A stretch of DNA of 64,000 nt from Psammoneis japonica (Eukaryota), in the NCBI GenBank assembly GCA_008632985.1, contig QPGO01000062.1:310001-374000 (forward strand). The letters are read 5' to 3'. The notes below the pieces were generated by a model. That model searched no databases and was not told the DNA's origin. It saw only the letters and a program-made list of their open reading frames with translations. Shown here piece after piece: positions 19,200 to 64,000 of this stretch (position 1 is the first letter of the stretch; every line of letters begins with the position of its first letter). The position numbers were made by a program, and so were the translations under genes.

Positions 19200-22100
19200 T
19201 CCACGTGGAAGCAAAAGAGCCTTTTTGAGAGAAGACGAGATCCCGCCAGATCTTCGCAAACAACGGTGCTGTGACAAACAAGTCAACCAAACAAACAAGA
19301 ATCAGCGCTTCAAGACCTGTGCAAATCTCCACCAAAAATGGTGCGAAAAAGGATCACCTGTGGTCACTGCCAAACGCCGCAGATTGGCAGCAAGCGCACA
19401 CCCATCAAAAATGTTTGGGTCTGTCTCGATGTGGCAATGCAAGCCGGCTCGAGTGTCTCTTCAACAACTCATGTTTTGAACAAGGGTGTGAGGATGTTTC
19501 AGAAGGTCACAAGCTCTTTGGCAGTCTGAGATGGCTTCATGCTAAAATGGTGGGAGAGGAGAAAGTTTGTTCGTTTGTGGGTCGACACCCTGGGCCCAAT
19601 GATGGGGCATGTCGAACACTGTGCGAACATCAATGTGTCAAAGCAAAATGACAAAACACCGTTGAATGAGTTGTTGCCTCTGTTGCCAGAAGAGAAGATT
19701 CAAGTGGGGATCTTGTGGCCAGTCTCAAAGCTGTGCTTCTGGTGCAAATGACAGCCCAGGTGTGTTGACAGATCAAGAATGAGCTGCACAAATTGTCAGA
19801 GATGCTGCACCGGATGGCAATTTTGAATGTGGACAAATCTGCTTGCAGCACTTGTCACCTCTTGTCAATTCTGCTGTTCTCTTGCTGGCACATTTTGTGA
19901 GCCAGGTGATGGGGCCAGAAAACTTTCAGCTCTGTGAAAACAACACTGAGGATGAGGTGCAATCCACAGCCCACCGCCATTGCTTGTGAATGTTGGAGAG
20001 GTGGCCATTTGGCTGTTCATTTGGCTCACCTTCAACAGAGACAACAATGGAGGCCCTGTCTGACTCAGGAACAGCAACACAATTCAACCAAAAGACGTGT
20101 GGCTTGCCCAAAGAAAGTTCTCCACCTTTGTCATGAACCAACGCTCAGCCAGATTTCTCTGTTCTCAATTGGAAGAGAGTGGCTGGATGAGAAAAAAATT
20201 TTGGAGCTTGCAGCAGATTGCACATCCAAAACATGTCTTGTTTGCAATGGCACATGGGGCACATCTTCCTTCCTCCAAAGCCATGTCCAATGAGAGTGGC
20301 CCTTGGTTCATCAAGGAGGTCCACAAAAATGGGGGGCAGGGCCACTCAACTGTGCCACCATTTGACGGATGTTTTGTCACTGACAGACCAAAGTGGATGC
20401 TTTGTCATGCAACAGCATGTCCACAATCCTCTTCTTGCCAACAATGGGCACAAGTGTCATGTCAAGCTTTGCAGTTTGGCTGTTTGCACTGGTCAAGGCA
20501 GTGAGTGGGAAGCGCACATTGTTCTTGGCCGACTTTTGGTCGACTTGAATGGCAGAATGTGGCTGGCAGATTTCAACTTCACACCCATCCTCCATGATCC
20601 AATCCAGGCAGCCAATGAATCAAACTGAACAACCAAGGGTCTAAAAACCCATTTTGAACTTCACAAAAAAAGCTTGGAGATGGCTTTGAAGTCAATGATG
20701 GTGCTGCAGACAGTGATGTGATTGCAATGATCTCCGGTGGTTCCATTGACCGGAAATTGAGCACCTCCAGTGATGAGAAGTCATCAACCACTGGCTGGAA
20801 TCTCTCCCTGAGAATGGCAAAATTGCAGCTCTTCTTTGGTGTGTTTGAGCAAGCTGGTGCAAGAACTGAGAAGGTCAGGTTTTTGCCACATCATTGAGCT
20901 GCAACAAGGACCGGACAGTGCTGGTCATTGTCAATGTCATCTGAACAGGAATTTGATGCAAACAATCTGCAGCTGTGCATTCTGCTCAGCAGGCAAGGGC
21001 CAATGGGCCAAATTTCTGGTGGGACAAGTGTGCCTGAATTCCACAACCTTGCAAGCAAGATTCGATGAATTTTTATAATGCAAAAGTGGAGCCACTGAAG
21101 TTGTGAAGTCCATCAGTGAGATTGCAGCCATGTTGTCTCCAACCCCAAAAGAAAAATTTGTGTCAAATGCCTCAAAAGTGGTGAAACCTTGCAAACAGCA
21201 ACTGCAGCAATGGCTCCACATGGCATTGGGTGGCCATGCTTTTCAATGAACACCAGTCCACTGCTTTGCTGTTGTCGGCTGTTCTGCATTTTCAACACAG
21301 GCTTGGCTCCTTTGCCAGACCAGAGTGGCACCTCACTTGTCTTTGTCATCATGTCCATTGCTGCCTTCTTCTTCTTCTTCTTCTTCTTCTCCATTGTTGT
21401 TCTGTTTTTCTTCCTTTTCCTCTTCCTCACTGTCCTCATTGTTGCTGGAAAGCTTTGGCATTGCTCATGTTCTTGCCTCCATCTGCATTGTTTTTTTTGT
21501 TGGTTTTTGCTTCCTTGCCCTTTTCATCTCTCTCCCTCCTCTTCTTGCCATTGCTGCACCCCATTTTGAGCTGCGCTCCTTCTGTGTGCAAGGGCACCAG
21601 TGTTTTTCCCTTCTCCTTTTGTTCCCTTTGTCATTTCCCTCTCAAATGTTCTCGCCCTTCATGGCCTTGTGCTCCCAAATCTTCCAGTGGTTCTGCAATG
21701 TCATCAGCCCCCAAGCCTCATTGTTTGCCACAGTTGGCTCTGCAGCCTTGGCATTTCCAGACTCCACCATCTTTCTCCACACTGCAGTGCTCTTTGTGAA
21801 TTTTAGAACATTGTCATGGAGCCATGTGCGTGCTTCCTTGTTGGTCTGCTTCTCACACACAATGGTGCCCACTGTTTTGTCAATCTCTCTCCTCAGAGAT
21901 TGGTGATCTCCAGCAGCTCCCGCCTGCAACAACACCGCCACCAACCTTGGGCTGTTTGGCAGATCTTCAGAAGCCACCTTCTTCCTTTTTTCTTCCTTGG
22001 CATTGCCTCTGCAGGTTGCAATTTGTTGCAGACTTGTGCTGCAGCAACTGTTTGTGCAGCTGATTCTGACAAGGAGGATGACCACCACTGCATTTTTTCA

Positions 22101-22540
22101 AACCTCTTAAATTTGAGATGCTCTCACCAGCTTTTCTTTTTTTGGCAATCAAATGTTCCATTTAAACACAACTCACAACTGCAAGCAGACATTTTCAACA
22201 TTAAATTTGTTGTCAATGTGCATGTGTCGTCAATGTGCATGTGTCCAAAACCAACCAAAATGCACACACAAATGTTTGCACCTGTGAAAGTTTTTGTTTG
22301 TGGAGTGAACTGGTTGCACACAGCCTTCCCGCCATTTTCACATTTTCTTCTCAATGTGGCACCACCACAATTTTCTTCCAACCCAATTCTTCCAACTCAT
22401 CTTTCTCCAAATGGGCAAAGCTGAAATTGCTGCACCACCCATGGTGAGAACAACCAGTGATGTGATCAAACACACTTCTCACCTCACCAACACAATTCAC
22501 AAAATGCTCCATGTGGGGTTGTGACAGAGTCTCTCTTTCT
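19200..22540. other. Decayed repeat-derived block depleted of both TpA and CpG; includes a minus-strand remnant (about 21400-22090) of an 'EAxxL...N.W' family protein
   Basis: Very few TA or CG by eye. TVANNEAWGLMTLQNHWKIW resembles SVSSEAFALPVHLNCC in the 31151 ORF. (TTC)n at 21366-21391. Confidence 0.55.
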
Positions 22541-22549
22541 TTTGTTTGT

Positions 22550-25500
22550 GCTCATGCATGTGATGGCACGCAACGTGAATCACGTGCACGAAGGACAAAA
22601 CATCGCGACCGGGCCAGCGAAATTTGCCCTCATGCATGACCTGCTGCAGGGCGATGCTCTGACGTCATTTGACAATGCCGCTGACAAGCGTGCATCCCAA
22701 ACCAACGCTGCGTGCGCAGCATGCGTCGCGAAGCTAAAGGAAAGTGTCTTCCCACATGGGGCAGCACCACTGCAGAAGCGTCATCTGTGGCGCTTCATGT
22801 GCAAGCCCGCAGAGGTTTCTGCTCGTGACTGTTGAAATTAACGGCTGTGTCTCTCAGTTTCCACCCGTGACGGAGGATGGAGAAACACCGGCACCATTGC
22901 CCAATGACGAACTGTGCGACATGTTCGAGTGCGGTGTGCCGAATGCATGGCAGAAGTTCATGACGCTGCAGAATTTTGACCCGCTGGCGCATGCCATCGC
23001 CGAATTTGTGCAGTTCTGTGAGCGCGCCGAGCAGGTCGAGCTTGCCGAAGGCAACCGCGACCAACACACTGGGGTCCCACATGAGCGGGGACGCAGAACG
23101 GACAGTTCTGAGTTGTTGATCACGACCCAACCACGACCCAACCGAACACCCACGTGAAACGTGTCAAGACTGGACAATCCAGCAACGGAGGCAGTGAGCC
23201 CAATGCAAAACCTCGGAATGAGGAAGACGCTGGTGCTCTCATCGGATCGAAGGTCGAGGAGTTCTTTGCCAACGCTCAGAAAAAGCGCAAGGCCCGTGAG
23301 GAGGAGCTTGGTCACTTCCGCAACCTCAACTTGAGTGATTCCGAAGACTCGGACACTTGCCGACACGATGCAGGTGGTTTTGACACACCAGATGAATGCA
23401 CCAATGAACAACTGAACTGCCATCGCACACGTGTTGCAGGCCAATCCCGCAAACGAGTTAAAAAGACTCATCTTGCTCCAATCTTGTTCACAGCTGTGAA
23501 TGCCAAACATGGCAAGGGCAAGACTCAAACTGTCAAGGCACTGCCAGACAGTGGCGCCAGCAGCACTCCACTCGACAGTCGATGCTGCAAATGTCTGCCA
23601 AGCCATTCAACGGCTGAGACAAACTGGGCCATGGCAGCAGGCTCGTTCAGTGTGTCCAACGACTGCACCGTTAAATTTCGGTTGCCAGAATCATCCGAAA
23701 CTGCAGAACTCAAGCATGCCATCCACGCACACAATGGAAAGTTGGGCAAGTGCGATGTGATCATTGGACGCGACACTCTGGAGACGCAAGGCGTTGACAC
23801 TGTCTTCTCCAAACAGATGACAGAGTGGCCATTGGTCAATGGAGAAGTGCCAATGAGGCACGCAGATGCTGCAGTGGAAACCTCCTTCTGTCTTCAAGAT
23901 CCAGAAGCCTTGTCTTCGGAAACCGACCGGATTTCGCAGATGCCAAGCACGCGCCGGCCTGCCTCGAGGACATGACGCAAGGGGCAACAGGACTTTCTAC
24001 AGTTCAACAAAACGACCTTTTAGCACCATTGAAACGCCATGAGTCCTCATTTGATGGGACATTGGGAGAATGGAAGGGAGAACCCTACCATGTCCAACTC
24101 AAGGAGGGTGTAGAACCATGCCACGCTCGTCCGTATAAAGTACCTCGTGCGTACGAAGCTACGCTACGTAAAGAAGTAGAACGCCTGGTACGTATCGGTG
24201 TTCTCAAACGCGTTAACCGATCCCAATGGGCAGCTCCATCATTTATCATACCGAAGAAAGATTTAACGGTACGCTTTATTAATGATTTCAGAGAGCTGAA
24301 TAAACGGATCAAGCGATTGCCTTATCCGATTCCTCATATCCAAGATATGCTACTTAAGCTCGAAGGCTTTATGTGGGCTACATCGCTGGATTTAAATATG
24401 GGCAATTATCATATCCGATTGGATACTGATAGTAAGAAGCTCTGCACGCTCATCTTCCCGTGGGGTAAGTATGAGATGCAGGTATTGCCCATGGGATTAT
24501 GTAATTCGCCAGACATTTTCCAAGAACGCATGTCAGGCTTATTTGAAGATCTATCGTTCGTTCGAACGTACTTAGATGACCTTCTCGTCGTGACGAAAGG
24601 CACCTATGAAGATCACCTCAACAAACTTGAAGAAGTTTTATTGAGGGTCCAGAAAGCAGGACTAAAAGTTAACGCAACTAAATCTCACTTCTGTCAAACC
24701 CAATTAGAATACTTGGGTTATCTGGTCAACAGAGACGGACCTACCTAATAAAGCATTAAGCGAATCGCGACCCCAACCAATAAACGCGACCTACGTTCAT
24801 TTATTGGTATGGTGAACTACTACCGCGACACGTGGATTAGACGTTCTGAAGTCTTGGCTCCGCTAACACGACTCGTAAGCGAGACTGTTAAGTGGGAGTG
24901 GACGTCCGTTGAAGACGAGGCGTTCGAAACCGTTAAACGGGTAATATCGGATGATGTCTTATTATCACATCCTGATTTTAATAAACCCTTTGAGATACAT
25001 ACCGATGCCTCTAAATATCAATTGAGAGCAGTTATATCCCAAGATAATAAACCTATCGCCTTTTACAGCAGAAAGCTTAATAATGCGCAATTAAATTATA
25101 CAACAACGCAGAGAGAATTACTCGCCATTGTGGAGACGTTGAAAGAATTTCGAACGATTCTCCTTGGTCATCGTATAATCATATATACTGATCATAAAAA
25201 TCTTACGTACAAAGTGTTCAATACCGAGCGCGTTATGCGCTGGCGGTTAATATGCGAAGAATACGGTCCCAAATTACGCTATGTTAAAGGTGCCCATAAC
25301 CTAGTCGCTGACGCTCTTAGTCGCCTTCGACTAGCACCCAGCTTGCCTTCCGAGGCTAATCCGGATGTAAAAGACACTCCATCGAGTCGTCCTTTGCATG
25401 AAGCTTTTAATGCAGACGCGCAAGATGAGCCATCTCTGCCCATCAGCTTCAAGCGCATTCAAAAAGCACAACAAAAGGACAAGCGCCTGCTCTCAAGAGC

Positions 25501-27010
25501 TGGGGACTCGTCCGACCACTCCATTCGCGCGCATCGTGGGGGAGGGTCATCACGACAGTTAATCTGTCATAAGGACAAAATCGTAGCACCACAGTCATTG
25601 CAGGTTCCGCCAACTGAATGGCACCATGGGACACTGTGTCATCCAGGTGAGACACGTGCGGAAATGTCTGTTGCCCAGCACTTCTGTTGGCCCAGCATGA
25701 GGTCTACGGTGCATTCTACGTGCGTTAAGTGCGATCGATGCCAGAAGACAAAACGCCGAACGCAGCATCATGGGAAGCTGCCAGAAAAGGTTGCAGAGAT
25801 GATTCCATGGGAGACTCCATGCACAGACATGACAGGGCCATGTAAAATTCAAAGACGAGAAAAGGACACCTTGCAATTGTGGGCAGTCACAATGATTGAC
25901 CCAGCAACCGGGTGGTTCGAGATTAAAGAAGTGTCCACAAAATGCGCAGACGTCGCAGCAAACGTCGTGGAACAAACGTGGCCATGCAGATGTCCGTGGC
26001 CAACCCAGGTGGTTTGTGACCGTGGGACAGAATTTATGGCAGAATTTAGCCAGATGATTAAAAATGACTGTGGGATTTTGAAGAAACCCACAAGTGAACG
26101 GAATCCACAGGCAAATGCCACAGTGGAACGTGTGCACCAGACACTTGGTGACATGGTGCGTTCCTTTCCAGTGCAGGACATGGAACTGGACGAAGATGAC
26201 CCGTGGAGTGGCATCCTCTCCACAGTGGCCTTCGCTGTTGGAGCTGCGGCACACACGACCACGCATGCAAGTCCCATGCAATTGGTCGTCGGACGCGATG
26301 CGGTTTTTGTCTGTTGCCCATCGTGCCAAGTGGAAGCACATAGAAACCAGAAAGCAGAAGCTTGTCCACTTAAACAGCAAGCGTGAAAATCAGAAACGCA
26401 AGGAGCATCAATGCACCGCAGGGCAATTGGCACTTGTCAAACAGGAACAATCCTCTAAATGCGGTTCTGACAGCTGTGCAGGACCCGCCAGAGTTGTCCG
26501 TGTGCATGACAACGGCACGTTGCGTGTCCAGAACGGAGCGCTGACAGATGCGTGCAATCTGTGGCAGATTGTGCCCTGTCACCAGCAAGACATTCTGTCA
26601 CTTAACGGCCCTGATCATGGGGGAGTGTGCAGCATGCCTCACCACTGGACAACACGGCGAGACCGTGCACAAGCCTCTTGCACGTGGCAATGCAGCATTG
26701 TCAACACGCACCTGGGAAGCACGACCACAGGAGGGCGTGGCTCCAGGTCTTGGGCAGTTCCAGAAGGATGCCAAGAGAGCGTCCGTGTGAAGCACACTAG
26801 CCCGTCGTCTGGCCCACGATGGCAGCGTGATTCCACACGATGACATCACTCGTGCATGGCGCGTGATGGCTTGATTCGCACGATCCACAATGCGAACGCA
26901 CGATCGACCCAATGCGATCCAAATGCGAGCGAATGGGGATTTGGCAAGATTCCCTGTTCGCACGATCCCATTTTCTCTTCTCTAAACTGGCTCATAATTT
27001 TCACAACGAC
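22550..27010 (+). mobile_element. Ty3/gypsy LTR retrotransposon; 5'-truncated, frameshifted, with hypermutated ends
   Basis: Domain order is gag (LLQGDALTSF), protease (ALPDSGAS), RT (DFRELN, LPMGL, YLDD), RNase H (TDAS, RELLAIV, YTDHKNL, ADALSR) and integrase (HHGTLCHPG..C..C, CDRGTEF, VERVH). PPT CATGGGGGAG at 26616-26625, then a probable 3' LTR to about 27010. No 5' LTR seen. Confidence 0.93.
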
Positions 27011-27659
27011 AAAGTCGCAACACATCTTCTTTTTCAGCACCCAGCACACACACAGGGCACATGGACAGTTGAAGGGTTCAGTGCCTTCTTCCTTGTTTTG
27101 CAAACTCTTTGTGAGGAATTTTGCAACTGGAAAACCCCACTTTTTTGCTGTTGAAAATTGTGCTGCAAGTTTGGGACATGCATTTCATGCAAAAATGGGC
27201 ATTTTTTCACCCACATCTGGGACACCAACAATCCAGGTGTCGCACTGGCATTCAAGATTTCTTGAAATAAAACCCGACATTTTCTCCCTTCAATCCAAGA
27301 TGATCGCGCTGATTTGACAAGTCAGCTTTTCTGAAATGTTCAACAACAAACATCCATGTTCCTCAATTTGGCCATTTGCCCCCCCATCCGACAAGCCTTG
27401 TGTGTGTGCTCAACTCCATTTTAATTTCTGGTTTGTGTGTCAATCAACTTTCTGGATCAAAATCGCCGCCCACATCTGTCAATCTAGACTCCAATTGTTT
27501 TCTCAATTTTCTCTCCCTGCCCATTCCATCCTTCCTCCCCGTCCATCCGCACGTTGCATCTCCATGTTTCCACCCTCACCATGTCCCCAAGTGATTGTTG
27601 TTGCACCCACTGTTTGCTTTCGATTCTCTCATCAACTCCTTTGTCTGTGTGCATCGGCC

Positions 27660-27790
27660 ATGTCGTCTGATGGTCTTGTTTGTCCATGGTGCAAACGAAC
27701 CGGTTTCTTTTCCGAACGTGGCCTCAGCAGGCACATCGCAACTAACTTCTGTGATGCACCTGACAGACAGACTGCCATTGTCAAAACATC
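27660..27790 (+). pseudogene. C2H2/C2HC zinc-finger remnant
   Basis: CPWCKRTGFFSERGLSRHIATNFC in TpA-depleted sequence. Cys and His are inflated in this region, so this needs caution. Confidence 0.4.
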
Positions 27791-27982
27791 ACATGGGGCT
27801 GTTTGCGAAAAAAACACCTGTGGTGCCCACAACAGATGGGCCGCCGTTGGCAACACATGTTTGGCAAGAAAGCCGTTTTTGTTGCAAAGTGATGGGTGCG
27901 GACTTTCGCTGTGTTGGGTCTGTTCCACTTAAAGAAAAAGACTGGGCACCATTTGATTTGGTAGAACAGGCAACTTCAGAGA

Positions 27983-28753: not shown

Positions 28754-28863
28754 ACACAGCAAGCGTGTGAACAAGCATGTGTTGGAATGCAAAACTGGCA
28801 AAGCAGTGAGTTGACACAGGCACAAAGTGGGTTTGTGCAAATGGCCAATTGACAACGCATTGC

Positions 28864-52397: not shown

Positions 52398-52641
52398 AAT
52401 GAAAACTACTCGAGGCTGTGGTGTGTGCTTTTGCGTTGTTGTTGTTGGGCAATCGGGTTTGTCGTCGTTGCATACTGGGTCTCTAGTAGTAGAGCGTAAA
52501 AGAGCTTTCACAAGTAGTTTCTCCCCCCACGATAATTCTTGATAGCAAGACCAATGATATAATGCATCAAGTAGATACAAAACTCTGTACTCTAGTGTAA
52601 CTTACAAAAAAGTCTCCCCCAGAATTACCGCCAAATGCATT

Positions 52642-54915: not shown

Positions 54916-55539
54916 ATGAATGAAATGAAGAGAGTGGTGGCAAGAGTTGAAATAATGTGAAGTACGTAAGGCGAAGAGAAAGTATGGATGGATATGGAGT
55001 TTCTCTTGTGTGCGCGCACGTGGATGATGCGGGGATGATGGTGTATGTATGGAGTTGTTGAGAGAGAAGAATCAAGAATTGCATATGTACGATATTGTTT
55101 TTAGAGAACAAGACAAGAAAAAACACAACGATCCAGTCTACTCGCATTTTCGCGTCGTCGTATGATACCGAGTTTGATGAGGAAAAGTATGTACCGTTTG
55201 ACTTGATTTCGCATCCCATCGGCACTGGATACCTTCTGCGGTCATTATGTGTATGGAATTTGAGGAAAGCAAGGTGTCTCGGTTGTTTATTTTGCCATAC
55301 ATATCCTTTGTGCTATCGTCTTGTTGTATGAAATTGAAGCTTCCACCTTCTTTCCGAGCGCGTCTTGTTGTAAAAGTGATCCATCCACCACATCACACTC
55401 GTTTGCGTATGAAACTGAATAGTTCCACCATCACAAAAAGTGCGGCGACGTTTTTCTCGTTTTGTTTTTGGAATGCTCACAAGGTTGATCATCCTACACA
55501 CACAAATCTCGTTGCGTTGCCCATTTTTGAGAGACAAAC

Positions 55540-56410
55540 AGCATGAAAAAGGCTTTTTGTGTTTTTTTTTGCCGCCAGAGACCTCATGCCGGCAAAAGAG
55601 AGCTTCGACACATCATGTGGTGACTACCTTGCGTGAAATTATGGCCAAGTCGTTGGGAGAATCAAACGCAACACACACACACACACACACACACACACAT
55701 TGGTTGCTGCTAAATTGCTGCTAAAGAGTGACGACGCTAGCCACAATGGGTCGGAGAGCACAAATGATGTTTGCAGTTTCGTCATTGATGTGGAATGGGA
55801 TGAGAATCCATTGTGATTTCATTGCGTTGTGGTGGAGCAAAACATCATGATGCGCTTGTGCCACCCAAGTTTGACATGTTTCACAGCCGTCTTTGGCTGA
55901 GACATTGTGGATTGATCAATGGGAAACAAACCCCAATCTAAAATGCCAAACACAAAACAAGAATGTGGCAGCCACACCACTCAAAAAATCGTGGGGCAGA
56001 ACAAGCATTGTGCCACCCCTCAGTTTCGCTTGCTGCACAGCTGTCTTTGGCTGAGAAAATTGTGGATTGATCAATGGGCAACAAACCCAATGTCCAAAAT
56101 GCCAAACAAAACAAGAATCTGGTGCCGCTAAAAAAAAAAGCCATCGGACAGAAGAACACAAAGGGAGCGGTGCTGGAAAAGGAGACAAGCACAGAGAGTG
56201 TGCCATTTGAGTTTGACTGTTTCCATGCCAGAGCTGTTGATTGAACAGTGTTTGGCAGCAACAACATGCTGTCAGTTGAGTGGCAGAAAGGCGCAGACAA
56301 CAAAGACACAAAGTGAAACAGGACAAGCACTGCCATCACCAGCCGAGTTGTCGGGAGAATTGGGGGTTGCCACATGTGCCGCGCCACTGCTGTGTGTTGC
56401 TGCTGAGAGT
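55540..56410. repeat. TpA-depleted repeat with an internal duplication of about 150 bp; a diverged direct copy lies at about 61135-61430
   Basis: TGTGCCACCC..GTCTTTGGCTGAGA..GTGGATTGATCAATGGG at 55858 and 56009. GGAGCAAAACATCATGATGC and CCAGAGCTGTTGA.TGAACAGTGTTTGGCAGCA are shared with 61137-61400. (CA)n at 55671-55699. Confidence 0.8.
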
Positions 56411-56781
56411 GGAGTGTTCTTGCCGACCCTCGAGGGAACATCTTTTCCGGGTTTCTTGAACTGGGACGTCACCGTGCGTCGCCGTGCGAATGTCTTGGCG
56501 CCACCTGACGTCACCCGACCTGCAAGGAGCCATGCGAACCCACCCTCAGAAAACGCTCCCTCTTGCAGGTTCAGGGGTGAATCACAACCCGTTTCACCTG
56601 CAAGAGGATTCATTCCCTCTGGTGCAAATTCTGCGCATTTTTGACGCAGTGAAACGCTTTCAGGTGGAATGAGAACTCCGCAACAAAAGCAAAACGCGCC
56701 GCCATCGCAACAACAAACACATCAATTGATTGTCACGACGAGCATCACAACCAAGCCACAGCATCCATGCAGCACATCATC

Positions 56782-57833
56782 ATGTCTTCTGAACACCCAC
56801 AGCATCACAAGTTTGCATGGGCTTTGGAAGAGTTGAAGAAAGCTTCCAGATCTGGTGGTTCTGGCACAAACAATGGAGCAGGACAGTCGGCCCCCGGTGC
56901 CAGCGTCATTTCTGCATCCAGGCCAGCCCCTTCTACGACTTTGGATGGGGAAGAAGCAGCTCTCATGGAAATCACGAATCTCTCAATTGATCTCACAGAG
57001 GATGCAACAGTTGACTTGATCAACGAGGAGAAAGGAGTGACAAAAAAGCCAAAGCTTCCAAAGTTGCTGCAACCCGAGAACGAGAGCTTGTTGTGCGAAT
57101 TGCTCTTCATCATGCAAACAAAGAAAGCACATCACACATCAAGCACATTTCGAAAGATGCGACCACCAAGTCAGTCTGGCAGCCAGTTCTGGACGAGTTC
57201 TACGATGGACCTGATGGCCCTGCTCGCGGCCATTTCAAGCCAACTGGTGAGTTTGCGCATCGCACTTTTCAACAAAAATGCTGGGGCATTGTGGACACGT
57301 TGGCTGAGCGTGCTTTAAACAAGGAGGAAGGGCATCGCACCCCTTGTGAGATCTCTGCATTGGCCATGTGGAAGGAGCAGAAAGATCTGACAGAAAAGGA
57401 CGAAGAATCCAGGTCGGAAGCGACGGCAAGGAAGGAGGAAGTGGCTGCTGCGAATGCTTCAAGCGAAGCCAAACTCAAACTCACACCTCCAAAACCATTC
57501 AGCAAGAAGCGTCCAGTCCCAAGCATTGCTGTCACTCCCTCTGAGAGACCTGATGGAAAAGTGCGGGGGGAGCCCAGGTCGAAGGACCGTGTGCTGGATT
57601 TGGAAAAAACCCAAGAGAAGGCAGACAAAGTCTTGAGTGACATCAAGGCTTTCCTCCCATCCAGGGAGGAGATTGGAGAAATCAACAAGCGCAAGAAGAG
57701 GAAGCTTCAGTTGGGCACAATGGCGTCCGTAGCAACAATGATCTCGCAGGGCAGGGATGCGGGTCTCGACGTCTCAAGGTTTCAAGAGCATTGCAAGCAG
57801 CTGCAAGACGAGCATTTTAAAGATCAGGCCTGA
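56782..57833 (+). pseudogene. Accessory ORF2 of the transposon (putative DNA-binding partner), frameshifted near 57130
   Basis: Two overlapping ORFs inside the TIRs, convergent with the transposase. Role inferred from the two-gene architecture of PHIS elements. Confidence 0.55.
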
Positions 57834-57884
57834 AAAAGATCAGGCTGTGCTTGGCATAAATTAGGATGCATGTTTCATGTCGCC

Positions 57885-59132
57885 GAGCACTTTCTAATGG
57901 TAGTAATTTTGTTTCCATAACTTGAGCAGATCAGAATTCTGATGTGCACATCCGAACGCCGCCGCAAAATTGCGTGCCAAAAATTCCCAGTCCGTTTTCA
58001 TGAACTGCCGGCAGGCGTTGCTCCAGAAGTAATGGGAGTTTTGCAACAATGAACAGTGTTAATGCCATCTGCAGAACGAGTACTTTCTAATGGTAGCATT
58101 TTTGTTTCCATACCTTGAGCAGATCAGAATTCTGTTTTATATATCCAAATGACACCGCAATTGCGCGCCAAAAATTCCCAGTCCGTTTTCATTAACTACC
58201 GGCAGGCATTGCTCCAGAATTAATGGGAGTTTTGCAACAATAAACAGTGTTAATGACATCTACAGAACGAGTACTTTCTAATGGTAGTGTTTTTGTTTCC
58301 ATACCTGAAGCAGATCAGAATTCTGTTTTATATATCCAAATGACACCGCAATTGCGCGCCAAAAATTCCGAGTCCGTTTTCATTAACTACCGGCAGGCAT
58401 TGCTCCAGAATTAATGGGAGTTTTGCAACAATAAACAGTGTTAATGACATCTACAGAACGAGTACTTTCTAATGGTAGTGTTTTTGTTTCCATACCTGAA
58501 GCAGATCAGAATTCTGTTTTATATATCCAAACGACACCGCAATTGCGCGCCAAAAATTCCTAGAGTCCGTTTTCATTAACTACCGGCAGGCGTTACTCCA
58601 GAAGTAATGGGAGTTTTGCAACAATAAACAGTGTTAATGACATCTACAGAACGAGTACTTTCTTATGGTAGTATTTTTGTTTCCACACCTTGAGCAGATC
58701 AGAATAGTCTTTTATATATATCCAAACGACACCGCAATTGCGCGCCAAATTCCTGGTGCGTTTTCATCAACTAGGCGTTACTCCAGAATTAATGGGAGTT
58801 TTGCAATAATAAACAGTGTCAATGACATCTACAGAACGAGTACTTTTTAATGGTAGTATTTTTGTTTCCACATCTTGAGCAGATCAGAATAGTCTTTTAT
58901 ATATCCAAACGACACCGCAATTGCGCGCCAAATTACTGGTGCGTTTTGATGAACTAGGCGTTACTCCAGAAGTAATTGGAGTTTTGCAACAATAAACAGT
59001 GTTAATGCCATCTTCAGAACGAGTACTTTCTAATGGTAGTATTTTTGTTTCCATGCCTTGAGCAGATCAGAATTCTCTTTTATATATCCAAACGAACGCA
59101 GTTGCGCGCCAAGTTGCTAGAGTGCGTTTTCA
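57885..59132. repeat. Tandem array of 6 full units plus 1 partial unit, 183-193 bp each, inside the transposon
   Basis: GAG(T/C)ACTTT starts at 57885, 58078, 58269, 58460, 58653, 58838 and 59021. Confidence 0.96.
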
Positions 59133-59201
59133 GGCAATGGAAGTGCCAGGAGATCTGTGACATAAAGATACAAGAAGCTACATTCTATACTAAGTTTGTA
59201 T

Positions 59202-60650
59202 CTAATGTAAATTTAAGTAGTTTTGAATTGATGGAGGATCAACACCAAAAGTGCCGATCGCTCCAATCTGGTTATGATGAAAGCACGTGTAGCAGTTTGT
59301 TAGTAGAAAAGACACACGAAGCTGCTCGCAAGCATACGGGCTTTCATAGTAAAGCTTGAAAGGGCAGAATGTCCTGCACACGCGAAACACATTTGACACA
59401 ATACCATAGCTCCACTCCACAGTGATGCGCACTACCTTGAGCCGATAATTTTCGAGCATTTGCATGGGCGTGAGCGGCGGCACCCCGTTGTGGCCAGGTT
59501 GATGTGCGTGGAGCACACATTGTTGTTGAGCAAATCCCCGGTCTGTGTGCACCGCATGCAGCGTGCCATCTTGAAAGTGTCCTTGTTGCATGTCTGCCAA
59601 GTGCTGGTTCACGGCAGACAAGCGCTGCAAATCGGTGTCAGCTCTGGGAAACTCAAAAATCGAACGCAAATCGATGAGTGCCTGTGTTTGACGTGACAAA
59701 CAATTGCAGCACAGAACTGGCAACTTTGCACTTGCCTACGAGCTGAAGTAGGACCCCACACAATGCACAAGCCATTTGGAAAGACCACAGATAACATCTT
59801 AATTCCGTGAACGTGTTTGTAGCCCGTGCAAACAGATCGCTGAATGTCGTCCGAGTCGGGGCGCCGAGGAGCATCTACCCAGTCATCAGCTGGCCCTGTT
59901 CCAGGAGTGTTTGTTTCAAAAATTGAACAATCCATAAAGCCCATGATGTTGAATTCCCCTGGTGGACAAACAAGACCGGGGACGTTGCATGCTTGGTCAG
60001 TGTCTGGGTCAGTCCAAGCAGCCCGTTGCTTCAGTTTGCGCTCCATTGCTCTGGCGAACAACGGAAAATCATCAACCCATCTCTGAAGTGCTTCTTGTCC
60101 AATGACAGGAGCATGTCTGTCATCAAGATGCATCAAAAACCACCTGTGTCCATGCGACCACCGAGTCAAATCCCTGCCTCCAAAGCAGTCATCCACCAAC
60201 ACGGTGTTGTCGAGTCCAAGTGCCACCCCAGTCAAGGAAAACAAAAACAATTCCTCACCAGTGAATTGGCAATGATGCCCATGAGCACATGGCACAAGAA
60301 CAATGTCGGGTGGCTCAAACAAATCATGCAGCACTCTCAACTCCTCCACGTCGAATCGAGTCGTCCGTTCGGCACAGTTGTCAGAGCAATCATCGATTCG
60401 TCGGTGATGCACAGGAGAAAAGTCAATGGGACGATGCTCCTCCTCACATGTCACATCACCAATTGTCGCACTCGCATCAGCCCAAATCTGAGCCACATGA
60501 CGACACGCAAAAATGCCGCCCAATGCACGCGCAAGAGCGACGCCAAACGGATCGTCCGCATCACCAACTTGTTCTGGATCAAACAAATGCCCATTTTCCT
60601 GATTGACAACATCAATTCTGGACACGATCGAAAGCAGAGTGAGATTGCAG
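59202..60650 (-). pseudogene. DDE_Tnp_4 (Harbinger-like) transposase with a probable intron at 59735-59644
   Basis: IMGFMDCS, CTGYKHVHG (YxGYK..H), FPNG..WGP.SARR|AD, HTDRGF and VRITVEWSYG motifs. Donor reads GCAAGT. Start uncertain. Confidence 0.88.
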
Positions 60651-61038
60651 ACCATTGAATAACTGATTGAACAGAACGCATCCAGAACATCTCTGTTCTC
60701 CTCAGTGCAGATGCTCCTCGTGCGTTGAGAGACCGATCCCTCATGTTTCTGTTTGTCAGCCGCCATGCCAATTTGCGGCAGTGTCCATGGTGAAAAAGCC
60801 TTGGTTGTCTTGGCATGACACAGATCACAAGTGCAACAATGATGCAAAAGTGTTTCTCACCTTGGCGGACGAGAACACCCGCAACCCCATCGTCAAAGCA
60901 TCAAAGCGCAGGCCTCCAGGCCGCGTTGAGGGTTGAAGCTGATCGGGCCGGCGAGTCGTGATTGAGTCGAGTGTTGAAGCACGAACGGATGAGAACCCCA
61001 GACCCATGACCCGTGAGGGTCAGTGAGAACACTCTAGT

Positions 61039-62860
61039 GCCGCTGGCTGCAGCAGGTTGCAGAGCCAAAAAGTTTGAATTTTTGGCATCTTCAGAATGGG
61101 AAGAGAAAACCAATTTTGTTTGATTTTGTTTGGGTGGAGAGCAAAACATCATGATGCTCTCAACCACCCCCCTTGTGGCTGAGAACATCATGGGTTGATT
61201 GACAGGAACAAACCCCAATCCAGAGTGCCAAGAAAAGAGTTTGGTGTTGTTCAAAAAACAGGGGCAGACAAACAAGCAGCAGCAGAGTGCTGCTGGAAAA
61301 AACAGAGCTGAGTCCAGCAGAGAGTGCACCATGTGTCAGTTTGACTTTTTCCACACACCCACTCCAGAGCTGTTGACTGAACAGTGTTTGGCAGCAGCGC
61401 AGCACTGTCTGTTGAATGGCAAATGGCGGGGACAACAAAAAGTGTGAACACAATCACTGCCATTGGCCTGGTTGCCTTGGATGTCAACTCTCTCTTTGCA
61501 ACACTCTGTTTGCAGTGTCAACATGGCTGAGTGGACCATGACTGTCAAAGCAACAAAGAGTCCCACAAAACACACACACAGGGCTTGCAAGAACATTCAC
61601 CAGCAACATCACAAAGAACCAGCCCCACAAAACGCACACACAGGGCTTGCAAGAACATTCACCAGCAACATCATGAAGAATCAAGTTGCAGTTTCTCATC
61701 ATTGACAGCACAACACCAGCACAGAAAGACAGCTGCTCTCCAACTTCTCTGTCCAAACTGCCATCATTGGGGATGAGCCACAGTTTGATTTGTCAAGATT
61801 TGGTTCTCTCAACATTGTCAACACACAAACAGCAAAGATGCAAACACCAGAGCTGCATTTGATGGTGATGCTGTGCAGCACCAATCTTGAAAACCACAAG
61901 AAACTGGTGCCATCTGTCTCAAGGTGAAAATGGCTCAAATTGGCATTGCTGTGAAGCAAGCATCAACATGCACCATTTCCCAACTCAATCCCTGTTCACA
62001 AGGGCACAATGTGCAGCTAAAGTGATTTGAGTTGCAAGCTCACACAGTGACCTGGGGGCCCACAGTGTCTCTCAACAAAAAAAGGAGGCAGGCACAGCCT
62101 TGCTCCTTTTCACATTTTTTTTCAAGAAACCAAGTTTGCTTGAAAGAGTTGTGGCATGTGGCTGTGCTGCTGGGGGTGTTGAGGTTGTTTTGTGAAGGCA
62201 TTGTCACACCAGGGCTGCTCAAGGCAGCAGCATTTGAGCTTGGAGATGACCTGTCAGCAAAACACTTGGGGGGGGNNNGGGGGGGGGGGGGTGGAAGAAA
62301 ACTTCCAGCTGACTCTGCCACCACACACACAGCACAGGCTTGCAAAAGCATCAACAACAAGGAGCACCATGATGATGAGCTCATGCCATCAGCGCAAAAG
62401 AGCCTCCTGGAGGGCTGCTGCATTTTTGTTTTGGGCACTTTTCTTGAGTGGCTGTTTGGGTGTCATCATGCTGGCTGCTGTTGGCTCATGCACATCTTGT
62501 TTCAGCAGCAGAAAAGAATCATCTGCCATGACACCCTTCAACATGACACAAGCTCACGGGCATGCTGGAATGCTGGGACCTGTCTTTTTTGATGATCTGT
62601 GACATCTGGCAGTTCTCTGGATTGTGAAGCATCCATGATGCTTGCTGCCACACATGATTTGTGCCACACTGCAAAAAACAAAAACAGAAGACCTGTGCAA
62701 AACAAATTTCCCCATCAACTTTGGAGCCTCCCTGGCAATGTTTGCATGCTGGCCAAGGGAGAAATTCAAGGAAGCATGCTGCACTCTTGAAATGAAGCAC
62801 ATGACAGAAATTGAAGGCAAATGGCAAGAATTCAAACAACAACTCCTTGCTGCTGTCTAA
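61039..62860. other. Decayed block depleted of TpA and CpG, with short direct repeats and a G-run containing NN
   Basis: ACACACAGGGCTTGCAAGAACATTCACCAGCAACATCA occurs twice (about 61574 and 61636). Poly-G at 62268-62292. Confidence 0.55.
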
Positions 62861-62861
62861 A

Positions 62862-64000
62862 TGGCAGATGAGTCTCCGCTCAGAGACCGTTGCAGGAGCC
62901 GAAAGACGTGCAAGTCGGCACAATCGGGCTGCTGTTGTCATTCTTGTGAGCCGTGTGGCTCGAAAGCAAACTGCATCGCATGCGAACGCGCAGAACTAAA
63001 GCACACAAAACTGTGCGCGGCAAACTAAACAGCACGCGACATTTCGCGCGCACCTGAATCCTGTTCAAATCCTGTCACTCCCCAGTTTGCTTGAGGAGTC
63101 ACAGAAACAGATTCGACTTCGGATGGAATGAAGTTCCAGAACATGAGGGGGCGGAGAAGGTCCCAGACTTGGGAGCAACCCCAATGCTTGCTGAGAATGT
63201 CAGCAGGGTTGCGGGAGCCTTCGATGAAGTGGAGCTCAAGGCAACCAGAGGCAATTGCCTCGCGCACATGGTGGAATGACAGTGTGGTGTGTCGCTTGTG
63301 TGACTTGGAGTGCGGGATGGTGGCACTGTCTACAACCGACTTGTTGTCACCGAACATGTGACTGATGTCACAGATCGGGACGCCGAGGCAGCGCAGGGTG
63401 ATGCGCAGGTCAACAATCTGCTCGACACAAGTCCTTGCGGCAACAAATTCAGAGCCGCAGGTTGCAGTCTCCATGGTGGCTTGCTTCTTAGAGAACCAAT
63501 CAGCCAGGAATTTGTTGAGGAAGTGGAGCATTCCCATGACAGAGCGTCCGGTGAGCATGCAATGGCACAAGTTTGCATCGACGCAGTGGGTGGCAGCAAC
63601 GAACTTGCCAAGGGGTGGTGGAGCGTCCTTCGGGATCATCTCTTCTGCCTTGCCGCACACGGAATGCATCCATTCACAGGCCGGAGCAGGGAGATCCGAA
63701 CAGTCGGGCTCTTCCGTGCGAACGCAGAGAGCGCCGTGTCGCATCTTGGAGAGGTGCCAACAGATGCGTTTGGCACGATCCAAGTGGCCTTGACGGGGCG
63801 CAGCTCGCCGTTCCTGCGCATCCAAATGTCGGGTTCGGCGCGGCAGGGGAAGAAACCTTCAGCTCGCAGGCAGTCGGTGAAGCGCTCATGCCAGCGGAGG
63901 CCGGAGCTGTGCAGTCCATGCAGGGCCTTGTGGATGACAAGAATGTGGCCTTCGAGTTTGCCAAATTCGGGTCCAGCCATGATGCACAGCTTCTCCTTGG
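62862..64000 (-). mobile_element. Ty1/copia (CoDi-like) retrotransposon 3' end: RT fragment, RNase H, PPT and 3' LTR
   Basis: KALHGLHSSG (KALYGL), AEPDIW, VDAN, WFSKKQAT.ETATCGSEF, FGDNKSV and NPADILSK. PPT GGGGAG followed by TG at 63077. Far end of the LTR is approximate. Confidence 0.92.

Follow-up and report, generated by a model that had tools for sequence, protein, structure and literature searches.

In the 64-kb window, meaning the whole stretch of DNA analysed here, six blocks have lost nearly all of their TpA dinucleotides, and a recount of the window confirmed that this depletion is real. It is fairly probable that the blocks record a strand-symmetric transition process directed at 5'-TAY-3' that saturates silent DNA; this process would be akin to one in the alga Bigelowiella natans, would proceed by adenine deamination and would be targeted by way of chromatin.

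Extent and borders of the TpA depletion

The six saturated blocks (22,656 bp) retain 79 TA (TpA o/e 0.05), as against about 875 expected at flank density, and the flank and gene DNA (35,252 bp) contains 1362 TA at an o/e of 0.55. An earlier, sequence-only reading of this DNA had described TpA as nearly absent from the blocks and ordinary in the neighbouring genes; both statements are borne out, and its spot counts (2 TA in 63061-64000, 4 TA in 22561-23940) were exact. In a 1-kb scan of the whole window, TpA o/e is at most 0.11 in 20 of 64 windows (19-24, 27-29, 30-33, 35-40, 56-57 and 60-64 kb) and lies at 0.33-0.70 over the 19 windows of 1-19 kb. The refined edges place the depleted stretches at 19.2-23.99, 25.3-29.47, 29.88-33.13, 34.9-40.43, 55.5-57.8 and 59.45-64.0 kb, with TA-normal islands at 23.99-25.30, 29.477-29.876 and 57.82-59.45 kb. 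From flanks to blocks, TG rises from o/e 1.18 to 1.71 and CA from 1.18 to 1.66, and CG falls from 1.02 to 0.45, the last being a co-located depletion that the sequence-only reading had missed. The remaining 12 dinucleotides lie at 0.86-1.27 in blocks and flanks alike, as the claimed specificity for TpA requires, and GC content is slightly higher in the depleted blocks (46.9% to 49.3%). The features are as follows.

19200..23990: saturated block A1, low-copy DNA at 19.3-22.3 kb, then the high-copy 5' part of a gypsy element from ~22830; 12 TA in 4651 bp, the last TA of the flank being at 19196
23337..26585, + strand: single Ty3/gypsy pol (PR-RT-RNaseH-integrase), in which mutated segments alternate with unmutated ones
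23990..25300, + strand: TA-normal island 1, the gypsy RT-RNaseH
25301..26383, + strand: integrase part of the same open gypsy ORF, TAY all lost, TAR/TAR kept, CpG intact
26300..29476: saturated block A2, unclassified high-copy repeats, among them one containing a weak PhyH-like ORF (27965-28750); 14 TA in 2951 bp
29477..29876: TA-normal island 2, a MITE-like insertion with terminal inverted repeats at 29468-29504 and 29853-29889
29877..33130: saturated block A3, high-copy repeats to ~32.3 kb and low-copy DNA after; 16 TA in 3101 bp
33450..34850, - strand: intact TA-normal gene (ORF 33710-34600) between depleted blocks
34900..40430: saturated block B, M3 pseudogene and a further 3.2 kb in which no domain was recognised; 13 TA in 5451 bp
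35070..37172, + strand: diatom-type pseudogene of an M3 (Dcp-like) peptidase, nearly complete in length (tblastn with 8 diatom homologues)
55500..57800: saturated block C1; 9 TA in 2101 bp
57818..59446: TA-normal island 3, tandem array (57884-59132) and C-terminal part of a Harbinger-type DDE ORF
59448..60856, - strand: N-terminal and middle part of the Harbinger-type transposase, depleted
59450..64000: saturated block C2, continuing past the window end; 15 TA in 4401 bp
63028..63998, - strand: weak copia-like RT (RVT_2 E=0.01, 15.9 bits vs a cutoff of 31.6)

The intact gene at 33450..34850 (TA o/e 0.45-0.50, CpG 0.83-1.03, Tyr 3.4%, weak COPI_assoc match) illustrates the tight confinement of the process, and block B beside it contains a TA-free run of 2105 bp (37474-39579) with CpG o/e of 0.09-0.39 in the block. 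For the gypsy element, whose RVT_1, RT_RNaseH, Integrase_H2C2 and rve domains were recognised with Pfam and by tblastn with P0122 and others, the gag-PR ORF (23112-23972) has no Tyr in 287 aa and reads ALPDSG at 23538. Island 1, at TA o/e 0.95 and CpG 1.24, encodes 9 Tyr in 183 codons and keeps 4/4 conserved Tyr and 6/6 Arg. The integrase part encodes none in 361 codons (with 17 Cys and 15 His); the 12 Tyr of P0122 are read there as five His, three Cys and four other residues. In that part 50 of 56 conserved columns are identical, Arg is kept at 4/4 and the ORF is still open. A second mosaic border lies inside the DDE domain of the Harbinger-type ORF 59205-59735 (DDE_Tnp_4, E=2.4e-6), which has 7 Tyr in its 81 island-3 codons vs none in its 96 depleted codons; the 415-aa ORF upstream has 2 Tyr, 25 Cys and 22 His. 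Tyr is likewise missing from the PhyH-like ORF (262 aa; Pfam E=7.5e-5, weak) and from 277 aa and 120 aa of block C2. Of the several unrelated transposon classes said to be hit, the gypsy and Harbinger-type elements stand, joined by unclassified high-copy repeats, while the copia assignment is weak. The MITE-like insertion carries 37-nt terminal inverted repeats, CGGC at both junctions and normal TA contexts, and it is missing from other copies of its host repeat, whose contigs run directly from 29476 to 29877.

Direction and sequence context of the substitutions

Alignments to homologues establish that the direction of change was from TpA to TpG/CpA, as had been proposed. In the M3 pseudogene, which has at least four frame changes, none of 17 Tyr is kept over 304 conserved columns (nine Cys, six His, one Phe, one Ser), and 52 of its 94 differences are explicable by TpA- or CpG-type transitions alone; however, 27 of the 94 require a transversion, which counts against the favoured explanation. 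Replacement of Tyr by both Cys and His, together with near-equal TG and CA counts in each block, supports the earlier claim of action on both strands, and the seven peptide strings cited for it are all present where implied. In sister gypsy copies (three Logan-derived Tyr-free proteins), the 54 cells at Tyr columns contain 27 His, 17 Cys and no Tyr, and a column is often Cys in one copy and His in another; the copies were hit independently.

The target is 5'-TAY-3' on either strand, a dependence on the 3' neighbour that is newly recognised here and had escaped the sequence-only reading. Within the 22,656 bp of blocks no RTAY site, which is TAY on both strands, is left of ~278 expected from the flanks, and 28 mixed sites (TAY on one strand) are left, a survival of ~6%. 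The 51 remaining YTAR sites (TAR/TAR) correspond to ~42% survival with flanks as proxy for the true ancestral contexts, a figure that depends on the proxy chosen (11-22% with islands vs 18-65% otherwise). The context effect is strong (Fisher p=4e-23), and YTAR makes up 51 of the 79 surviving TA vs only 23% under a back-mutation model. In 25300-26300, for instance, 10 YTAR, 7 mixed and no RTAY sites were counted. The product asymmetry predicted by the TAY rule holds in 6/6 blocks, with YTGY+RCAR at 1492 vs 1031 for YCAY+RTGR, compared with 1494:1341 in the flanks (chi-square p=2.5e-6). TAC and TAT are hit about equally, and the order of susceptibility is TAY > TAG > TAA. TAY to TGY and RTA to RCA leave an identical sequence signature.

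The tandem array of island 3 (period 191 bp, 6.5 copies by TRF) is still TA-rich, and low-level or ongoing action at TpA is shown there: 13 A>G/T>C variants against the consensus fall at 28 TpA positions, compared with 5 at the 87 remaining A/T positions (p=3e-6, odds ratio 14). Ongoing or low-level action is also indicated by position 22423, which reads CTGAA in the window and CTAAA in a single-copy-depth contig.

CpG decay, copy number and candidate explanations

Ordinary 5mC-type decay of CpG to TpG/CpA overlies the TpA loss in the same blocks and is slower and separable. Saturated 1-kb windows have TpA o/e of at most 0.11 throughout and CpG o/e anywhere from 0.09 to 0.82, and in the gypsy integrase zone all TAY are gone yet CpG o/e is 0.8-1.0; TpA loss can thus proceed without CpG decay, which is newly seen here. 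Low TpA is not a trait of the gypsy family, since 17/17 metagenomic relatives have TpA o/e of 0.50-1.18, and those with CpG o/e as low as 0.05-0.10 retain TpA at ~0.6, in agreement with the earlier exclusion of RIP and 5mC decay as the cause. The decay of 5mC accounts for the CpG component of the blocks, as at the M3 Arg codons, of which 4 of 21 are kept and 17 have become His, Gln, Cys, Trp or stop; it was rejected as the cause of the TpA loss because it cannot remove TpA.

Under the favoured explanation, the A of 5'-TAY-3' would be converted to G at the DNA level, equivalent to T of 5'-RTA-3' to C on the other strand, with TAG and TAA converted more slowly. Near-saturation would be reached in discrete, sharply bounded silent blocks of a diatom-like nuclear genome, in which transposons of several classes lie together with unclassified repeats, low-copy DNA and a single dead gene of host type, while expressed neighbours would be spared to within a few hundred bases. 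Judging from the transition type, the chemistry may be enzymatic deamination of adenine to hypoxanthine, read as G. The enzyme would be directed to silenced or foreign chromatin, not to duplication as such, and the degree of depletion would reflect time in the silenced state. Searches of the 64-kb window found no deaminase or TET/JBP-type dioxygenase, only the weak PhyH match, consistent with the earlier statement that the responsible enzyme is absent from it.

The trigger was assessed from contig depth in the public run X1, taken over 15-35 kb of the window and counting contigs at least 80% alike, so that older, independently mutated copies could fall below that limit. Depth is ~55 in the flanks, 50-70 at 19.3-21.0 kb, 150-400 at 21.0-22.3 kb and >10,000 beyond 22.3 kb; it is 3,500-45,000 in block A2 and falls to 84 at 32343-33009 in block A3. 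Both of the shallow segments at 19.3-22.3 kb are fully depleted. The description of the process as repeat-targeted is not supported: single-copy-depth DNA and the host-type M3 pseudogene are depleted, and the high-copy MITE and the RT-RNaseH part of the high-copy gypsy element are spared. A trigger other than duplication is suggested by the depleted low-copy DNA and pseudogene and by the spared MITE.

The mosaic borders in the gypsy ORF (~23990 and ~25300) and in the DDE domain (~59450) count against a chromatin or age model, which needs recombination, gene conversion or assembly chimera to accommodate them, and they fit a homology-limited process as well. Such a RIP-like process, in which duplicates pair, perhaps in a sexual phase, and TpA is mutated only in the shared segment, is nevertheless unlikely. 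Borders inside single transposon ORFs resemble RIP tracts that end with homology, most depleted DNA of 22.3-32.3 kb is high-copy, the sister gypsy copies were hit separately, and the spared MITE is just ~400 bp, near the minimal length for fungal RIP. On the other side, DNA of single-copy depth is depleted at 19.3-21.0 kb, the spared RT-RNaseH island is as deep (11,000-13,700) as its depleted neighbours, the MITE is untouched although the two bins overlapping it are the deepest (22,796 and 65,132), and the depleted DNA has almost no internal repetition within the window. The B. natans targets, moreover, are described as integrated viral regions in asexual mutation-accumulation lines (bioRxiv 10.64898/2026.01.13.699255).

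A thymine-based chemistry, in which the T of 5'-RTA-3' is modified, for example oxidised by a TET/JBP-like dioxygenase to yield 5hmU or 5fU, and then becomes C through mispairing with G, is comparably improbable. A T-centred change fits the sequence as well as an A-centred one. In addition, 5-formyluracil mispairs with G and dinoflagellate 5hmU is enriched at TpA. The 2OG-oxygenase (PhyH) match in a high-copy repeat is a curiosity only, being weak and outside the TET/JBP family, and a literature search gave no evidence for such bases in diatoms. The authors of the B. natans preprint favour adenine deamination, likewise without proof (bioRxiv 10.64898/2026.01.13.699255).

Error-prone patch repair of 5mC-deamination mismatches, with a Pol-eta-like polymerase misinserting G opposite T at WA, is very unlikely. 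It would account for TpA loss and CpG decay sharing exactly the same blocks, and the errors of Pol eta are biased towards A>G at WA, a pattern that also marks phase 2 of somatic hypermutation. However, WA includes AA, which is untouched (o/e 1.20 vs 1.22), TAY is completely lost where CpG is intact, and methylated metagenomic gypsy copies keep their TpA; the absence of RTAY survivors with few other changes is far beyond polymerase error spectra in specificity and saturation.

An artefact, whether from modified bases miscalled in heterochromatin or from polishing or assembly errors turning TA into TG/CA, is slightly less credible still. In its favour, the runs come from one sample and have no recorded sequencing platform, and chimeric assembly of high-copy repeats could have produced the mosaic. 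Against this, ~55x k-mer contigs match the window to ~0.3% in depleted low-copy DNA and over the border (8 differences over 17132-19466, which crosses the left border; 3 over 20312-21355, at depth 66), an agreement that is not fully independent as X1 is possibly the window's own source sample. Resequencing of B. natans lines revealed this signature appearing de novo (bioRxiv 10.64898/2026.01.13.699255). Sites are cleanly TG or CA, units and copies differ from each other, Tyr-free gypsy proteins are present in other Logan assemblies, and miscalls would not obey a per-strand TAY rule plus product asymmetry. Least probable of all is ADAR-like A-to-I editing of transposon transcripts copied back to DNA, for which the 5' U preference of ADARs and the RNA intermediates of retrotransposons could be adduced, but which is contradicted by the near-equal hits on the two strands and by the affected DNA transposon, host-type pseudogene, low-copy DNA and satellite array, by borders that reach beyond elements to gene edges, and by a 3' preference for Y with slow TAG, where ADARs favour 3' G.

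Comparison with known systems

Fungal RIP likewise produces saturating dinucleotide-specific transitions with sharp tract borders in mobile or duplicated DNA, with sister copies independently mutated and genes inactivated. It runs in the opposite direction, making TpA from CpA and lowering GC, whereas TpA is destroyed and GC slightly raised here. AID/APOBEC and ADAR enzymes share deaminase-type transition hypermutation against mobile nucleic acids. However, APOBEC produces strand-biased C>T/G>A at TC or CC, ADAR acts on RNA and is strand-specific after reverse transcription, and neither fits the strand symmetry, TAY context and TpA specificity seen here. The tRNA A34 edited by TadA/ADAT2-ADAT3 always follows U33, which provides a T-A context, and the bacterial TadA substrate is UAC, whereas TAC and TAT are affected to a similar extent in this DNA and no such gene lies in the window. 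To our knowledge ADAT2 is universal in eukaryotes, and its presence alone therefore explains nothing. DNA editing by amphioxus and trypanosome ADAT2 is cited in the B. natans preprint (bioRxiv 10.64898/2026.01.13.699255).

The closest counterpart is B. natans, a chlorarachniophyte unrelated to the diatom-type stramenopile studied here and the one organism for which this footprint appears to have been reported previously. Of the 231 mutations that its mutation-accumulation lines showed in two integrated viral regions, 230 were A>G/T>C changes, every one of them at TpA, and RT and DDE Pfams were over-represented among TpA-poor CDS (Mettrop et al., bioRxiv 10.64898/2026.01.13.699255, April 2026); the preprint's discussion also gives the direction of RIP. 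The statement that the process was not described in diatoms stands, as the literature search found no diatom report, but the process itself had been described in B. natans. According to the preprint, the process there was watched in the lines, affected viral regions and left 3.3% TpA in the NCLDV region; here it is inferred from its footprint, is near-total and affects transposons, repeats and low-copy DNA as well as a host-type pseudogene, and viral genes were not seen. Co-occurring CpG decay and the graded TAY rule found here are both absent from the preprint's main text. As far as the preprint describes them, the two cases share substitutions that are almost entirely A>G/T>C at TpA and fall on both strands, TpA-poor sequences that include RT and DDE domains, and discrete TpA-depleted, CpA- and TpG-enriched regions beside neighbouring genome sequence that is normal. 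The process in this window would thus be of the same kind, and a real further case of a type of hypermutation that has only just been described.

Extent of TpA depletion and the DNA that carries it

The observed/expected ratio (o/e) of TpA, taken in 1-kb windows, ranges from 0.33 to 0.70 over 1-19 kb, whereas 20 of the 64 windows (19-24, 27-29, 30-33, 35-40, 56-57 and 60-64 kb) have values of only 0.00-0.11. The edges of the depleted blocks are sharp, being resolved to about 100-350 bp, and intact genes directly adjoin them.

Depleted stretches and TA-normal islands (from a 100-bp map and TA positions), with the intact gene between depleted blocks
19.2-23.99 kb, depleted
23.99-25.30 kb, TA-normal island 1 (RT-RNaseH of a gypsy element)
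25.3-29.47 kb, depleted
29.477-29.876 kb, TA-normal island 2 (MITE-like insertion)
29.88-33.13 kb, depleted
33.45-34.85 kb, intact gene
34.9-40.43 kb, depleted
55.5-57.8 kb, depleted
57.82-59.45 kb, TA-normal island 3 (tandem array and C-terminal part of a Harbinger-type DDE ORF)
59.45-64.0 kb, depleted

Pooled over six saturated blocks (22,656 bp), only 79 TA dinucleotides remain (o/e 0.05), compared with 1362 in 35,252 bp of flank and gene DNA (o/e 0.55), and the longest TA-free run extends over 2105 bp (median TA spacing, 16 bp). Relative to the flanks, TpA is lowered 11-fold and CpA is raised; TG and CA reach o/e values of 1.71 and 1.66 (1.18 each in flanks), CpG stands at 0.45 versus 1.02, and GC content rises from 46.9% to 49.3%. 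The remaining 12 dinucleotides, AA, AT and TT among them, are steady between blocks and flanks, and TC, GA, CC and GG have the same o/e in both. A sequence-only reading of this DNA had described a loss specific to TpA: its spot counts of TA proved correct on recount, and both the loss and the specificity hold (TA at 0.05 while AA, AT and TT are unmoved), but the co-located loss of CpG had been left unmentioned.

The flanking genes are ordinary by Pfam, encoding a UGPase/PGM fusion, an ABC-F protein, EF-P, GT61, an AAA ATPase and a CCT-motif protein. The first occupies a single 1055-aa ORF (2196-5360, minus strand) in which UTP-glucose-1-phosphate uridylyltransferase is fused to a full phosphoglucomutase, an arrangement typical of diatoms and other stramenopiles. 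A direct duplicate with ordinary TpA content (10413-10985 and 11322-11879, 75% identity), whose second copy overlaps the EF-P ORF (11199-11888), probably represents two EF-P paralogues in tandem. The depleted DNA and its islands contain the following features.

Elements and genes recognised in depleted DNA and islands
23337-26585, single Ty3/gypsy pol (Pfam, tblastn)
27965-28750, plus strand, weak PhyH-like (2OG-Fe(II) oxygenase) ORF (PhyH E=7.5e-5), inside a repeat of contig depth 3,500-4,600
35070-37172, near full-length M3 (Dcp-like) peptidase pseudogene with several frame changes
59205-59735, minus strand, Harbinger-type DDE ORF (Pfam)
63.0-64.0 kb, weak copia-like RT (RVT_2 E=0.01 only)

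All matches to the M3 peptidase come from diatoms (e.g. Chaetoceros, Pseudo-nitzschia, Nitzschia, Mayamaea, Thalassiosira and Cyclotella), which indicates that the genome is diatom-like. When 67, 150 and 25 ORFs were compared with Pfam, most of the depleted ORFs had no match, and in self-blastn and repeat searches neither the gypsy element, nor the 19-27 kb region, nor block B (34900-40430) yielded a pair of LTRs or TIRs. Depleted DNA is scarcely repeated inside the window. A set of tandem units that have diverged from one another (40896-41598, about 200-250 bp each, 72-77% identity) lies just beyond block B on its right side and has normal TpA.

Three public sequencing runs contain this stretch, with the platform not on record and none listed as RNA; as all derive from one sample and one study, they may be the assembly's own source. 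Contig comparison covered 15-35 kb, and only positions with contig cover were counted as evidence. In the first run, contig depth is about 55 over flank genes; one contig crosses the left border (17132-19466, 8 differences from the window) and another lies inside a depleted block (20312-21355, 3 differences, depth 66). That k-mer contigs of such depth come out clean argues for accurate reads, and the contig-window differences (about 0.3%) look like alleles. Contigs of the second run are confined to TA-normal genes (15001-19086 and 33593-34592) and one 205-nt piece, and the third run yielded a single piece; being placed almost only on TA-normal genes, the second run looks like cDNA despite its 'DNA?' label. 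Three N at 62276-62278, within block C2 (59450-64000), probably mark a minor gap left by scaffolding or polishing within repeats.

Copy depth was taken from contigs at least 80% alike to the window. In the first run it is 50-70 at 19.3-21.0 kb, 150-400 up to 22.3 kb, 3,500-65,000 at 22.3-32.3 kb and about 60-85 past 32.3 kb, so that, at this likeness cut, part of the depleted DNA is very high-copy and part is low-copy.

Direction of change and its sequence context

The M3 pseudogene was compared with 81 diatom homologues, scoring those columns at which 80% or more of the homologues agree; among 304 such columns, 210 are identical and 94 differ. None of 17 conserved Tyr is kept (9 Cys, 6 His, 1 Phe, 1 Ser), Cys or His standing at 15 of the 17, and only 4 of 21 conserved Arg survive (6 His, 4 Gln, 4 stop, 2 Cys, 1 Trp). 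The pseudogene is composed of 0.15% Tyr, 5.3% Cys and 4.6% His, with Tyr at 1.5-4.0% in seven intact ORFs.

Differences at conserved columns of the M3 pseudogene
TpA-type changes alone, 23
CpG-type changes alone, 28
TpA- and CpG-type changes both required, 1
Explained in part by TpA- or CpG-type changes, 5
Other transitions, 10
Transversion required, 27

The same Tyr loss is found where an element straddles an island. The gypsy ORF at 24752-26383 is a single open frame of 544 codons, with 9 Tyr in its first 183 codons (the island) and, in the following 361, no Tyr, 17 Cys and 15 His; the 12 Tyr of P0122, the closest relative (56% identity), correspond in the window to His (5), Cys (3), Asp, Phe, Gly and Ala. 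The Harbinger-type ORF has 7 Tyr in 81 TA-normal codons versus none in 96 depleted codons, and the PhyH-like ORF, which may be a captured piece of a host gene or may belong to the element itself, has none in 262 aa. TGY and CAY are both produced, and TG and CA are about equal in each block, which shows that both strands were mutated. The direction from TpA to TpG/CpA that had been read from conserved motifs is thus confirmed by the M3, gypsy and Harbinger-type ORFs.

Survival of TA sites depends on the neighbouring bases, as summarized for sites with TAY on both strands (RTAY), on one strand (mixed) and on neither (YTAR).

TA sites left in saturated blocks and expected from flanks
RTAY, 0 left, about 278 expected, survival 0%
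Mixed, 28 left, about 477 expected, survival about 6%
YTAR, 51 left, about 121 expected, survival about 42%

The survivor classes differ (Fisher p=4e-23), TAAA making up 30 of the 79 survivors, and back-mutation from TG or CA predicts 23% YTAR, compared with the 51 of 79 observed. By strand pair, the flank proxy gives survival of 0.65 for TAA/TAA, 0.44 for TAA/TAG, 0.18 for TAG/TAG, 0.06 for TAR/TAY and 0 for TAY/TAY; when the islands stand in for the ancestral composition, the values are 0.11-0.22 for TAR/TAR classes, 0.03-0.04 for one-TAY sites and 0 for TAY/TAY. TAR/TAR outlasts TAY-bearing sites under either proxy, while the order within TAR classes is proxy-dependent. TAC and TAT behave alike. 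The predicted products of mixed sites (YTAY to YTGY and RTAR to RCAR) are in excess in all six blocks, YTGY and RCAR amounting to 1492 versus 1031 for YCAY and RTGR, with 1494:1341 in flanks (chi-square p=2.5e-6). The survivor classes and the product asymmetry together identify the target as the A in 5'-TAY-3' or, equivalently, the T in 5'-RTA-3', the A-centred and T-centred readings being equivalent as far as sequence can tell. This trinucleotide rule is a new addition of the present analysis.

The 191-bp tandem array at 57884-59132 in island 3 (6.5 copies, 88-91% matches), which adjoins the Harbinger-type ORF and has normal TpA overall, allowed a small comparison of copies with their consensus. 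The 50 unit-versus-consensus variants include 18 A>G/T>C changes and only 3 of the reverse type (TG or CA to TA); 13 of the 18 fall at 28 TpA positions versus 5 at the remaining 87 A/T positions (odds ratio 14, p=3e-6). At position 22423, one of the allele-like differences, the window reads CTGAA and a contig of the first run CTAAA; this difference and the array variants hint that the process was active recently.

Among 150 gypsy-like representatives, two lack Tyr altogether and another two contain little of it, their Cys and His being raised, and a further search from one such protein added two more among 119 further matches, Logan-derived and 63-66% identical to the query. The proteins concerned, present in public protein collections (P0163, P0272, P0286 and P0170, also P0266 and P0220), have no or almost no Tyr, raised Cys and His and a Tyr-to-Cys/His signature, with Arg mostly kept; the first three come from Logan assemblies by listed source. 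At columns with Tyr in at least 7 of 12 normal relatives, these three have 27 His, 17 Cys and no Tyr in 54 cells, often Cys in one and His in another, which points to independent mutation of the copies; Cys/His exchange ranks second among the differences between two of them, and other TpA-type changes (V to A, T to A, I to V/T, L to P/S) are also present. A homologue search with gag-PR returned one distant match (31% identity) and no sister copies, and a related-locus search with P0163 found no relative. In the sole dispersed repeat pair in depleted DNA, TG/CA double mismatches occupy 4 of 267 bases versus 3 of 554 in the control, both small counts.

Loss of TAA and TAG stops leads to long spurious ORFs: stop-free stretches of at least 100 aa number 3.9 per kb in depleted DNA (19200-40430 and 55500-64000) versus 2.5 in flanks, in several overlapping frames, and gene predictors would call spurious CDS there. 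Loss of Tyr and Arg, in turn, hides TE domains from Pfam profile searches.

Separation from CpG decay, and the trigger

In saturated 1-kb windows CpG o/e varies from 0.09 to 0.82 while TpA stays at or below 0.11 throughout. In the integrase zone (25.3-26.4 kb) every TAY is gone, while CpG o/e is 0.8-1.0, Arg is kept at 4 of 4 positions, the frame is open and 50 of 56 conserved columns are unchanged. Furthermore, 17 metagenomic gypsy relatives found with P0170, which served as a control, have TpA o/e of 0.50-1.18, none being TpA-depleted. Taken together, these observations show that TpA loss is neither a by-product of CpG decay nor a compositional trait of the element family; the two signals are co-located but separable, and the TpA process outpaces CpG decay. 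Three of the 17 environmental relatives (L004, L015 and L016), with CpG o/e of 0.05-0.10, an excess of TG/CA and TpA of about 0.6, represent classical methylation decay without the TpA process.

The islands and borders bear on what is targeted. Island 2 (29477-29876) consists of a MITE-like element, about 400 bp long, with 37-nt terminal inverted repeats and CGGC at each junction; it is missing from other copies of its host repeat, has normal TpA and CpG, and shows the highest depth bins on 15-35 kb (22,796-65,132, versus about 55 for single-copy DNA), and it is probably young and active. Island 1 does not differ in depth from the depleted DNA on either side of it. The Harbinger depletion border falls within the DDE domain, and the 19.2-kb border is confirmed by a contig. 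Mosaic borders within ORFs need an exchange of sequence by recombination or gene conversion between copies with and without the mutations, assembly chimeras in high-copy repeats, or a homology-limited process.

The blocks contain gypsy, DDE and copia-like elements and repeats, in addition to the host-type pseudogene and DNA without a recognisable domain. The sequence-only reading had regarded the process as repeat-targeted; since low-copy DNA and a host-type pseudogene are depleted and a high-copy MITE is spared, repeat targeting is not established. A RIP-like homology trigger would fit the depletion of most high-copy DNA, yet 19.3-21.0 kb is depleted at single-copy depth (a call limited by the 80% likeness cut), and the high-copy MITE and RT island are spared (assembly chimeras being possible there); such a trigger appears improbable. 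We favour a process that would be directed to silenced or foreign chromatin, in which case the degree of depletion may reflect the time spent in that state.

Relation to known mutational systems

Several other explanations were rejected. Editing of the ADAR type fixed by retrotransposition is excluded, as is any RNA-intermediate editing, since both strands are mutated and the targets extend beyond retroelements to a DNA transposon, a pseudogene and a satellite. APOBEC-type editing (C>T/G>A at TC or CC) is at odds with the unchanged o/e of TC, GA, CC and GG. Selection against UpA was likewise rejected. As for enzymes, TadA/ADAT is known to edit A34 always next to a preceding U33, and the bacterial TadA site, UAC, is consistent with T-A-Y; the ADAR preference for a 3' G does not match the TAY rule, and the Pol eta motif WA includes AA, which is untouched in the blocks.

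Full-text literature searches found no report of TpA hypermutation from diatoms or stramenopiles. The sequence-only reading knew of no description in diatoms; one close precedent exists, in the chlorarachniophyte Bigelowiella natans (bioRxiv 10.64898/2026.01.13.699255). According to that preprint, the mutation rate of two integrated viral regions in mutation-accumulation lines is about 6e-7 per site per generation; of 231 changes, 230 are A>G or T>C, every one of them at TpA, and they occur in some lines only. This hypermutation arose de novo, at about 1000x the background rate. The preprint describes 324 TpA-poor CDS enriched in RT and DDE domains, and its authors propose an ADAT2-like DNA adenine deaminase; a CpG effect, trinucleotide context and diatoms go unmentioned in its main text (bioRxiv 10.64898/2026.01.13.699255). 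The present finding is real and strong, and constitutes a second instance of a kind described once, in a preprint, from a different and important lineage; beyond that precedent it contributes the TAY rule, shows TpA loss to be separable from CpG decay, and adds TEs and a pseudogene to the targets.

It is conceivable, and is put forward tentatively, that diatoms and chlorarachniophytes, perhaps SAR protists more widely, share a dedicated DNA-editing defence in which a deaminase, directed to chromatin that is silenced or foreign, would edit the A of 5'-TAY-3' within double-stranded genomic DNA. Such a defence would erase the Tyr codons, TAA/TAG stops and TA-rich promoter or target sites of transposons and integrated viruses; the rule TAY > TAG > TAA would be the fingerprint of the enzyme, and a patchy footprint among sequenced diatoms could point to its gene. 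The systems by which eukaryotes were known, before 2026, to defend their genomes through targeted mutation were of the C-to-T kind (fungal RIP and APOBEC), in contrast to the TpA-specific A:T-to-G:C process of the preprint. A saturated footprint in a diatom-type genome places the process beyond one species, in major, ecologically dominant and genetically tractable algae, with ordinary transposons and dead genes as targets beyond viral insertions. The fingerprint is now sharper, with TAY targeted on either strand and no dependence on CpG decay, and is usable for enzyme screening and genome scans; a comparison of diatoms that carry the footprint with those that lack it could open the identity of the enzyme to direct test.

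Fungal RIP changes C to T at CpA, raising TpA and lowering GC, whereas the window shows the opposite (TpA down 11-fold, CpA up, GC from 46.9% to 49.3%). Putative 5mC-type decay of CpG matches the CpG loss in blocks (0.45 versus 1.02) and the M3 Arg kept at 4 of 21; it accounts for only part of the TG/CA gain. In B. natans, according to the preprint, mutation was watched arising, whereas the process in the window is known from its footprint. A rate of the B. natans order would saturate TpA long before background mutation became visible, which matches the integrase zone. The two systems share changes that are almost wholly A>G/T>C (in the window, TA down and TG/CA up, the CpG component aside), a mutated A that follows T and a mutated T that precedes A, and confinement to discrete regions with mobile DNA and normal neighbours, the window blocks also holding a host-type pseudogene.
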